Assembly: GCA_041649575.1 (NCBI GenBank)
Contig: JBAZMW010000002.1
Location: forward strand, 148,487 to 212,486
Reading direction: 5' to 3'
DNA from: Patescibacteria group bacterium
GTDB taxonomy: Bacteria; Patescibacteriota; Patescibacteriia; 2-01-FULL-39-33
Length of the DNA: 64,000 nucleotides
A program made the position numbers and the translations under genes. Below, in pieces: positions 20,711 through 21,599 of the stretch (within the stretch, counting starts at the first letter, position 1; each line of letters begins with the position of its first letter). The notes beneath the pieces are model-generated. The model saw only the letters and a list, made by a program, of their open reading frames with translations. It did no database searches and was not told the origin of the DNA.

Positions 20711-20739
20711 TTGACAAATATTTATCTATATGATATAAT
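20711..20739 (+). promoter_or_regulatory. Perfect consensus sigma-70 promoter (TTGACA-N17-TATAAT)
   Basis: ttgacaaatatttatctatatgatataat reads straight into the GC-rich region with no long ORF. Confidence 0.55.
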
Positions 20740-20747
20740 TATAATTG

Positions 20748-21300
20748 TAAAAAGATAAATAAGATATTTTTCGAATCTCCTTGCTCATGGCGTTACGCCA
20801 GTTATCTGGATGTATCGCCATTGACAAGGGTCTTTGAAAGGCGTTAGAACTATAATTTAGAGGAGGATGGCGCTTTATACGCTGCCAGTCCTGGCTTCAA
20901 GATAACTTCTTGAGGCGAGGCGGCCGGCTAAGCGCCCTGGGAAATCAGGTCACAAAATATAATTTTGCGGGCCGTACGATTCTCCCGCCAATCACCCTCT
21001 AATAATTGTTCTAAAAAATCAGGCGGGGATCTTGTCCCTGCCGCGATGCGAAGGAAGCCAGTGCCCGTAAATCTGCGCCTGTTTGGCGCAGATCAGGGCA
21101 GTCAGAAAAAGTTCGGCAAGTAGCAAAACAAACATCTTTACCGTGGCCGGCAACTTTTTCTCAAGTTTTATTCGTATCGTGGCAGAGGTAAGCGGCCACT
21201 GCCCTCTCCTTGGTGGCAAGCCGGTTTGGTTTGTATGACCGACCGGCTTGCCTCTCTACTTTAGTCAACAAGATTTGTTGACTGGGGCAGGGAAGTCAAC
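20748..21300 (+). ncRNA. Candidate ~550-nt GC-rich structured RNA or long structured 5' leader of the 21315 ORF
   Basis: No ORF longer than a few codons. Many perfect hairpins (agtcaacaagatttgttgact, ctgcgcctgtttggcgcag, caagccggt..accggcttg). Elevated GC sits between a consensus promoter and an SD-preceded small ORF. Confidence 0.3.
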
Positions 21301-21314
21301 GAGGAGGGCGAGTC

Positions 21315-21503
21315 ATGATTGTACAATGTTGTAAGTGCCTTCGCGTACGCGAAGGTACACAAGGTAGTGAGTGGAGCCAGGAGCCCGGAGAACGTTTGAC
21401 TGAAACAGACGTCTCCCATGGGTACTGCCCCGCTTGCACCGAGAAGGCGTTGGCAGAAGTACGCCAACACCATGGACAGAAGGAGGATACGCGGACCGAA
21501 TAG
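21315..21503 (+). CDS. Small zinc-ribbon protein (62 aa), high-GC
   Basis: GAGGAGGG SD. Product MIVQCCKCLRV...GYCPACTE gives two CxxC pairs. Terminator hairpin acgcgg..ccgcgt plus T-run overlaps the stop. Confidence 0.5.
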   Translation: MIVQCCKCLRVREGTQGSEWSQEPGERLTETDVSHGYCPACTEKALAEVRQHHGQKEDTRTE

Positions 21504-21599
21504 GACCGCGTTTTAATTTTCTCAAAAATTATCAATAAATTTTTAAAGCACTCTTGACAACATCTTGTTTTTGATTTTTTTTCTGTGTTATAATTTTTT

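Follow-up and report, generated by a model that had tools for sequence, protein, structure and literature searches.

Downstream of a gene encoding a UvrD-type helicase fused to a PD-(D/E)XK nuclease, in a stretch of 64,000 nucleotides from a Patescibacteria genome (contig JBAZMW010000002.1; hereafter the window), a consensus sigma-70 promoter with an extended -10 element is followed by about 570 nt lacking a credible open reading frame (ORF). Behind it come a short ORF (the mini-ORF) for a Cys-rich mini-protein of 62 amino acids (aa) and a terminator-like hairpin. The region between promoter and mini-ORF is almost certainly a real, conserved and previously undescribed structured RNA. A 5′ hairpin, P1, and two larger domains, D2 and D3, each fold as an RNA module in its own right; they show conservation with compensatory changes within a single narrow clade of Patescibacteria (Candidate Phyla Radiation, CPR), are non-coding and belong to no described RNA family. 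Together with a fourth element, D4, they make up the non-coding 5′ part (20746-21314) of a predicted single transcription unit, which runs from the promoter through P1, D2, D3, D4 and the mini-ORF to the terminator near position 21511. The preliminary description of this DNA had proposed, as general alternatives, a large structured non-coding RNA (ncRNA) or an unusually long regulatory leader, and the strong covariation of a conserved structured RNA bears this out.

The closest relatives of the helicase-nuclease all come from metagenome-assembled genomes (MAGs) of Patescibacteria. When the fetched helicase loci were searched with nhmmer, only L001 and L055, the two nearest relatives, turned out to have the stretch. 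Homologues of the mini-protein gave access to further lineages (L087/L088, L089 and L090-L092), as did those of a 126-aa protein encoded further downstream (L093/L094, L095/L096 and L097). In total, seven lineages, all from a single narrow CPR clade, were found to have the RNA; they share a common gene order: helicase ... mini-ORF ... a small RNA unit, the 126-aa membrane protein, pheS and pheT. It was not found in 78 other helicase loci, and the RNA operon was absent at the more distant locus L101, where dciA lies directly upstream of the membrane-protein gene; L102, with just 35 nt of upstream sequence, was uninformative. A pattern scan of metagenomes returned near-identical copies of the L001 lineage only. 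Phage records gave no match with blastn, and a pattern scan of IMG/VR gave three chance matches that had neither nhmmer nor mini-ORF support.

The covariation that the preliminary description had proposed to look for among homologues was found in all three modules. Of the 31 predicted pairs of P1, 11 showed compensatory changes among six sequences, and its inner stem CCAG/CUGG is flipped to CUGG/CCAG in L090. P1, whose folding z score is -6.2, was seen in six lineages; in L095 it is cut off by the contig end. All seven lineages, L093 included, have D2. Its closing helices P2 and P2a were 97.6% paired with five compensatory pairs, and pairing dropped to 39-52% when the register was slid. Over the whole domain (42 pairs, eight sequences) 91.5% of the cells were paired and 18 pairs were compensatory, compared with 35-50% pairing in slid registers. 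D2 contains the conserved hairpin CAGGUCACAAA...GGGCCG (20946-20975) and a sequence, UAGAGGAGG, resembling a Shine-Dalgarno (SD) site.

D3, a three-way junction present in six of the seven lineages, gave the same picture: pairing over its 44 pairs reached 95.1%, compensatory changes were seen in 14 of them, and sliding the register reduced pairing to 45-55%. The core of its closing stem, GAUGCGAAGGAGGC/GCCUUAUUCGUAUC, is nearly invariant and includes a conserved G.A mismatch that adjoins a G.U pair. The first arm terminates in a 9-bp hairpin (21071-21093), within which lies one of the two hairpins named in the preliminary description, CUGCGCC/GGCGCAG; the other, AGUCAACAA/UUGUUGACU, is likewise present, at 21263-21283. 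The outer stem of D3 holds in L090 too, though the arms are far longer there; with its two large insertions the L090 domain exceeds the span of the covariance model, and it was assessed by its outer stem and its own fold. The D3 model scored 136-160 bits on the + strand versus 30-44 bits on the - strand. This strand preference, together with the conserved G.U pairs, indicates that the + strand is the transcribed one. In each module the closing helix comprises at least 20 bp, the stems that close the domains measuring 20-26 bp.

In agreement with the covariation, the region folds far better than expected from its composition. The minimum free energy of 20746-21320 (575 nt) is -251.6 kcal/mol versus -178 ± 7.4 kcal/mol for dinucleotide shuffles (z = -9.9), and D2 plus D3 gave z scores of -7.0 to -9.2 in four lineages. 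The GC content of the stretch (45-54%) had been described as elevated; this is so relative to the flanking intergenic DNA (10-24%), but it equals the coding GC of the host genome. Such a value would also fit a pseudogenised or unrecognised coding sequence on either strand, and one reverse frame is indeed free of stops across D3 in four of six lineages. We consider this explanation extremely improbable. The only + strand ORFs in 20746-21314 start with TTG and encode 30, 52 and 51 aa, and none of the local ORFs tested on both strands matched Pfam or was conserved in the relatives, in line with the earlier claim of some 550 nt without a credible ORF. Across D3, each + frame contains stops in each lineage, and the reverse frame that is open in the others is interrupted in L097 and carries seven stops in L090. 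Substitutions lack a 3-nt periodicity (variability of 0.58-0.67 in all phases), only 15-35% of the indel lengths are divisible by three, and dozens of base-pair changes are compensatory. None of these tests gave a sign of the pseudogenised coding sequence that the preliminary description had named as a second refuting result. A possible upstream ORF within D2 was also rejected: an AUG preceded by GAGGAGG occurs only in the window, L001 and L055, is absent from L090, L095 and L093, and the encoded peptides are unrelated.

The promoter of the unit matches the consensus perfectly, as had been noted, and transcription is predicted to start at about position 20746. It is not exceptional, however: the 64-kb window contains six perfect TTGACA-N16-18-TATAAT sites, whereas 0.01 would be expected by chance, and one of them, at 54216, is nearly identical to the promoter at 20711 and lies upstream of an ordinary ORF for a 243-aa protein. 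As a rule, this CPR genome seems to use consensus promoters. A promoter of the 20711 type is located at an equal position relative to P1 in L001, L055, L097 and L093, and in L090 it is displaced about 200 nt further upstream. No promoter was detected between the modules in the lineages compared, and P1 precedes D2 and D3 wherever it was seen.

No known RNA family accounts for the stretch. At the gathering score, Rfam 15, the models of which covered RNase P, signal recognition particle (SRP) RNA, transfer-messenger RNA (tmRNA), 6S, OLE, GOLLD, ROOL, raiA, HEARO, T-box and all riboswitch classes, recognized only a tRNA at 62620 in the whole window. Relaxing the threshold to E ≤ 10 for 20500-21800 added, inside 20746-21310, only a match to rli28 that is driven by the promoter (20.2 bits versus a cut-off of 45). 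The homologous regions of L001 and L090, at E ≤ 1, gave only sub-threshold noise from microRNA-hairpin models on P1-like stems, and ARAGORN found no genes and no tmRNA in 20000-23000. The preliminary description had seen no convincing signature of RNase P, tmRNA or SRP RNA and had named an Rfam match as the result that would overturn it; these scans support the former and did not produce the latter. Nevertheless, a strong promoter and a size in the range of stable RNAs might point to a divergent housekeeping RNA (RNase P, SRP, tmRNA or 6S) missed by the covariance models. CCAGGUCA in D2 and GAAGGAAGC in D3 moreover resemble SRP helix 8 of the E. coli 4.5S RNA. These two strings belong to different domains, at a distance of about 100-175 nt, and covariation supports another pairing partner for each of them; we therefore regard the likeness as coincidental. 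The string GAGGAGGGAAAUGG proved on inspection to be unlike the conserved P4 region of RNase P, whose covariance model gave no match. Restriction to one small clade and partial loss in L093 are, in addition, incompatible with an essential universal RNA. With only far-sub-threshold noise in Rfam and a negative ARAGORN result, a housekeeping RNA is very improbable.

Comparison of the lineages revealed that small ORFs or an extra hairpin element have been inserted between the modules, which are themselves undisturbed (Table 1). These insertions, together with closing helices of at least 20 bp, suggest that the modules are self-contained folding units inside a messenger RNA. None of the inserted small ORFs matched Pfam or PHROGs above threshold; one had a weak, sub-threshold match to ankyrin repeats. 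The operon is a hot spot of small-ORF gain and loss, several of these ORFs being Cys-rich (CPxC...CxxC) or membrane-spanning. The extra element, a conserved long hairpin (AAAACUAUCUUGCUAA ... GGCGGGAUAGUUUUG) located between P1 and D2 in four relatives and absent from the window, occurs with or without inserted ORFs, and its 5′ strand is loosely P1-like.

Table 1. Positions of predicted features in the window and of insertions, extra elements and 3′ regions in related lineages.
Feature	Locus	Position	Strand	Description	Basis
Promoter	window	20711-20739	+	consensus sigma-70 with extended -10, TTGACA-17-TGaTATAAT: TTGACA 20711-20716, spacer 17 nt, TG 20731-20732, TATAAT 20734-20739	12/12 score
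Second promoter-like site, further 5′	window	20606-20634	+	TTGACA-17-TATATT	11/12 score
Perfect consensus promoters	window	930, 13239, 20711, 33020 (-), 45318, 54216			sequence scan
P1	window	20770-20838	+	long 5′ hairpin, ~31 bp, small bulges, inner stem CCAG/CUGG, 4-nt loop	covariation, 6 sequences
D2	window	20844-21014	+	multi-helix domain, 171 nt, ~20-bp closing stem	covariation, 8 sequences
D2 closing helix P2	window	20844-20850 / 21008-21014	+
D2 closing helix P2a	window	20857-20863 / 20996-21002	+
D3	window	21031-21192	+	three-way junction with two arms on 26-bp closing stem, 162 nt	covariation, covariance model
D3 closing stem	window	21032-21058 / 21166-21192	+	5′ strand includes GAUGCGAAGGAAGC at 21045-21058; 3′ strand includes UUUUAUUCGUAUC
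D4	window lineage only	21194-21312	+	two perfect hairpins (21215-21252, 21263-21283) inside anti-SD/SD pairing; anti-SD GCCCUCUCCUUG (21201-21212), SD region of mini-ORF CGAGGAGGGC (21300-21309)	predicted fold
Mini-ORF	window	21315-21503	+	62 aa, Cys-rich mini-protein; SD GAGGAGGG 21301-21308, ATG 21315, stop 21501-21503	conserved in 6 lineages with in-frame indels
Terminator-like hairpin	window	21489-21520	+	ACGCGG...CCGCGU (21489-21511), overlaps stop codon, then UUUUAAUUUU (T-run)	fold
Insert P1-D2	L055	11832-12188		118-aa ORF
Insert P1-D2	L090	1479-2441		four small ORFs
Insert P1-D2	L093	4014-4160		48-aa transmembrane ORF
Insert P1-D2	L095	63-911		283-aa membrane protein
Insert P1-D2	L097			hairpin element alone
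Insert D3-mini-ORF	L089	3-134		43-aa ORF
Insert after mini-ORF	L090	3156-3335		59-aa Cys-rich ORF
Extra hairpin element	L055	12248-12318
Extra hairpin element	L090	1405-1475 and 2480-2562		two copies
Extra hairpin element	L097	3738-3825
Extra hairpin element	L093	~4205-4250
Structured 3′ region and terminator after mini-ORF	L001	9770-9960
Structured 3′ region and terminator after mini-ORF	L055	12990-13160
Structured 3′ region and terminator after mini-ORF	L097	from ~4420
Second small RNA unit	window	21586-21725	+	extended -10 promoter TGtTATAAT 21586-21594; RNA of ~125 nt (~21601-21725); terminator 21691-21717
126-aa protein gene	window	21777-22157	+	hydrophobic, membrane-like protein, directly 5′ of pheST
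Structured spacer	window	22158-22454	+	GC-rich, between the 126-aa protein gene and pheS

D3 lies directly 5′ of the mini-ORF in all six lineages that carry either of them, and both are missing together in L093. This lineage retains the promoter, P1 and an intact D2, with a terminator at the end of the unit; the two may have been lost together in one deletion. The distance between D3 and the start codon is variable, ranging from about 10 nt in L001 to about 190 nt in L089. In L001 and L097 the SD begins 2-10 nt past the 3′ strand of the D3 stem.

The mini-ORF itself is a real gene, as the preliminary description had it: it is preceded by an SD, is conserved, and ends in a terminator hairpin with a T-run (-12.8 to -16.4 kcal/mol, z = -3.9) that a consensus scan missed as its loop exceeds 8 nt. 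The protein, then called a zinc ribbon, belongs to a sizeable unannotated family. A profile search gave 59 matches with E-values down to 3e-28, and phmmer with the window protein returned at least 172 representative clusters (50% identity) at E ≤ 1e-3. The labels of the members include Hydrogenedentes and bacteria of the FCB group, and each named member is called a hypothetical protein. They are stand-alone proteins of about 60 aa with the motif M-x-VQCCVCK-x-x-R...W...SHGYCP-x-CA-x-x-AF-x-EI; apparently longer fusion homologues look like mis-called N-termini. Residues C5, C6, C8, H35, C38, P39 and C41 are invariant and all are kept in the window protein. No significant match was obtained in Pfam, NCBIfam, PHROGs or a PDB sequence search. 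An AlphaFold2 model (pLDDT 78.6) consists of short strands and a C-terminal helix, and Foldseek found no significant PDB neighbour for it. This widespread family would merit an entry of its own among the protein families.

Genes of family members from outside the CPR clade lie in unrelated contexts and have no such RNA: the conserved strings do not occur upstream of them, the D3 covariance model gave no match, and the upstream folding z scores are only -1.5 to -2.7. An apparent GGCA...AUGCUUG likeness 5′ of three of these genes (L084-L086) proved to be an unrelated small hairpin and was rejected as a shared RNA motif. In the relatives L001, L055 and L097 a conserved structured 3′ untranslated region with a terminator follows the mini-ORF; the window has no such region and terminates right at the mini-ORF stop codon.

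The position of D3 raises the question of whether it, alone or with D2, is a ligand-sensing riboswitch for the mini-protein, responding for instance to a metal or thiol signal, or whether the region is an RNA thermometer, both of which the preliminary description had offered as examples. A conserved three-way junction with 14 compensatory pairs directly 5′ of the same gene in six lineages, an SD directly next to the D3 stem in L001 and in L097, and the several operon ORFs that are Cys-rich and look metal-binding would all suit a riboswitch. So would the explicit anti-SD/SD pairing in the window, where D4 (-65.1 kcal/mol, z = -6.7), a three-helix structure, reduces the unpaired probability of the SD to about zero. 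The other lineages have no D4, however, and in L097, L055 and L090 the SD is for the most part unpaired, so that no expression platform is conserved; for the window, the consensus scan also gave no terminator-like site on the + strand from D3 to the mini-ORF. A repeat or mobile-element origin of D4 and of the neighbouring GC-rich spacers found no support either, as there are no further copies in the window.

Purine and thiamine pyrophosphate (TPP) riboswitch aptamers are three-way junctions closed by a P1 stem of 4-8 bp. D3 resembles them in its junction, in its conserved junction nucleotides and in a closing-stem 3′ strand that leads toward the ribosome-binding site. It differs in a closing stem of 22-26 bp, in the lack of a conserved expression platform, in the gap of 10-190 nt and in matching no Rfam riboswitch model. 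The domain-closing stems of 20-26 bp are too stable to switch, those of 22-26 bp would form regardless of ligand, and homologues of the mini-protein in other phyla do without the RNA. As regards a thermometer, a CCCUCUCC tract further 5′ base-pairs with the window SD GAGGAGGG, as in SD-sequestering leaders such as ROSE and fourU; this lock of -65 kcal/mol, unlike a weak meltable hairpin, is too stable to melt, and it is specific to the window lineage. The variable gap, the unconserved occlusion of the SD and the long closing stems together make a classical riboswitch or thermometer unlikely, and we assign this explanation a low probability; the two examples thus fared worse than the general proposal from which they came.

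Tentatively, and with less than even confidence, we favour the interpretation that P1, D2 and D3 form a cis-acting platform for the processing, stability and translation of the small-protein mRNA, and not a ligand switch. Long flank-to-flank helices in bacterial transcripts are best known as RNase III processing sites and stability determinants, and this is the reason for our preference. The RNA is real, stranded and conserved, it is preceded by a promoter of the same type and predicted to be co-transcribed with small ORFs in each lineage, its modules tolerate inserts, D3 is always 5′ of the mini-ORF, and D4 of the window occludes the SD. Closing helices of at least 20 bp would serve a double-strand-specific RNase of the RNase III type as substrates and would hold up exonucleases. 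The sites of cleavage, the lifetimes of the resulting pieces and the amount of translation from the small ORFs between and after the modules would thereby depend on P1, D2 and D3. D3, joined in the window by D4, would gate the mini-ORF; D4 would lock the ribosome-binding site, and cleavage or unfolding would be needed to free it. The conserved loops and junctions (CAGGUCACAAA, GGGCCG, UGCUUGUC and the G.A/G.U step in GCGAAGGAGGC/GCCUUAUUCGU) point to a particular tertiary fold or to a factor that binds there. That the RNA exists to bind the mini-protein is weakly argued against by the net charge of the CPR mini-proteins, which are neutral to acidic (-3 to +1).

In bacterial precursors, RNase III stems bracket 16S and 23S rRNA, and RNase III sites are also found in polycistronic mRNAs. 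The domains described here are likewise enclosed, within a longer transcript, by a flank-formed helix of about 20 bp or longer, cutting of which would, by analogy, release the domain and separate the flanking cistrons. They differ in that the enclosed domains measure 110-260 nt and are not rRNA, and in that the stems themselves (GAUGCGAAGGAGGC/GCCUUAUUCGUAUC) are strongly conserved.

Several points weigh against the platform interpretation. RNase III processing of the closing stems is pure inference on our part, and occlusion of the SD is not conserved, which weakens the case for translational control by D3 itself. Simple stability elements rarely conserve loops and junctions so strongly, which suggests a more specific function, and the intact D2 of L093, where D3 and the mini-ORF are missing, indicates that D2 has a role independent of the mini-ORF. 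Finally, there are seven lineages only, several of them closely related, and the shuffle statistics overstate their independence.

Part of this evidence could also be explained if D2 and D3 were a stable large ncRNA, acting in trans or forming a ribonucleoprotein (RNP), that is co-transcribed with small-protein genes in the manner of OLE and oapA. Cleavage of the closing stems may release D2 and D3 in this case, the partner being the mini-protein, another product of the operon or a housekeeping factor. Such an RNA would be consistent with the multi-domain architecture of D2 plus D3 (330-430 nt, each domain with its own long stem, z of -7 to -9), the strongly conserved loops and junctions and the strong promoter. 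It would also be consistent with the retention of D2, with compensatory changes, in L093 despite the loss of D3 and the mini-ORF, and with a distance between D3 and the mini-ORF that is variable and tolerates an intervening ORF in L089 while occlusion of the SD is unconserved. The RNA is never a stand-alone gene with its own terminator directly behind it, however, but always resides on an ORF-bearing transcript. The CPR mini-proteins, being neutral to acidic, are unlike typical RNA-binding zinc ribbons, and their family outside the clade does without the RNA. Its distribution, with absence from the 78 other helicase loci and L101, is also very narrow for a core cellular role. A stable ncRNA is a serious rival, if a somewhat less probable one; it and the cis-acting platform are not mutually exclusive.

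OLE RNA (Rfam RF01071) is found in extremophilic Firmicutes next to the gene of its partner, oapA. Like OLE, the RNA reported here is an ornate multi-helix RNA of more than 400 nt inside a protein-coding unit, directly 5′ of a small conserved gene, and it is narrowly distributed, with a biochemical function as little known as that of OLE at its discovery. The linkage of D3 to the mini-ORF in six of the six lineages carrying either fits what is expected of an OLE-like ncRNA and its partner gene. The differences are considerable: there is no homology to OLE (no Rfam match), and neither the mini-protein nor the 126-aa protein has a Pfam or significant NCBIfam match. The adjacent gene encodes a soluble-looking Cys-rich protein of 62 aa instead of a membrane protein, and the modules are separable by inserted ORFs. 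GOLLD, ROOL, raiA and HEARO, all of them in Rfam, are similar in size class, in strong structure and in having no assigned function. The RNA matched none of their models, is not associated with a tRNA, a prophage or an IS605-type element, and was not found in phage or viral collections.

Together these comparisons define a new RNA family. In kind it resembles a large orphan structured RNA or a long structured leader beside a small gene; what is unusual is the arrangement in modules and cassettes. Large structured RNAs of more than 400 nt that have solid covariation but no family assignment are rare in bacteria, and to our knowledge OLE, GOLLD, ROOL, raiA and HEARO/omega RNA each eventually revealed unexpected biology. 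A more far-reaching view, which we regard as less likely than not on present evidence, is that the RNA represents an undescribed class of large modular CPR RNAs that does more than tune one mRNA, either as excised stable RNAs or RNPs of the OLE/ROOL kind or through D3 as a giant metal or thiol aptamer controlling Cys-rich mini-proteins. The tiny genomes of Patescibacteria keep little dispensable sequence, yet this RNA occupies about 0.5 kb behind a strong promoter, and its self-closed domains, with unrelated small ORFs coming and going between them, are a natural experiment on how the parts depend on each other. With a narrow distribution, seven lineages in a single clade, it is at present a candidate with good support, which falls short of the discovery of a mechanism.

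Some of the public records carrying the Patescibacteria-type locus are titled uncultured Gammaproteobacteria or Candidatus Saccharibacteria (L055, L006, L008, L011 and others), and the taxonomic labels of such MAGs look unreliable. The conserved 126-aa protein is identical to WC518_01945 (NCBI, Patescibacteria MAG). It was found only in this CPR group, with eight database matches and more distant homologues that are 41-43% identical, and has no match in Pfam, NCBIfam or PHROGs. The spacer between its gene and pheS is very structured (z = -8.9) and has a terminator-like hairpin at its start; Rfam gave no match to it at the gathering score, and the window contains it once only. A mere 2-111 nt separate the two genes in the relatives, so that the window lineage alone has most of this spacer.

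Another small RNA unit, independent of the first, is present just upstream of the promoter of the 126-aa protein gene in at least six lineages. In Rfam it gave only a match to rnk_pseudo that is driven by the terminator (29.9 bits versus a cut-off of 55). The RNA has a folding z score of -7.1 and ends in a strong terminator with a T-run. Its closing stem covaries (GGGAAGG/CCUUCUC, GGGAAAGU/ACUUUCUC and GGGGGGG/CCCCCUC), and the motif UCUCUAAAUCCCG is conserved.

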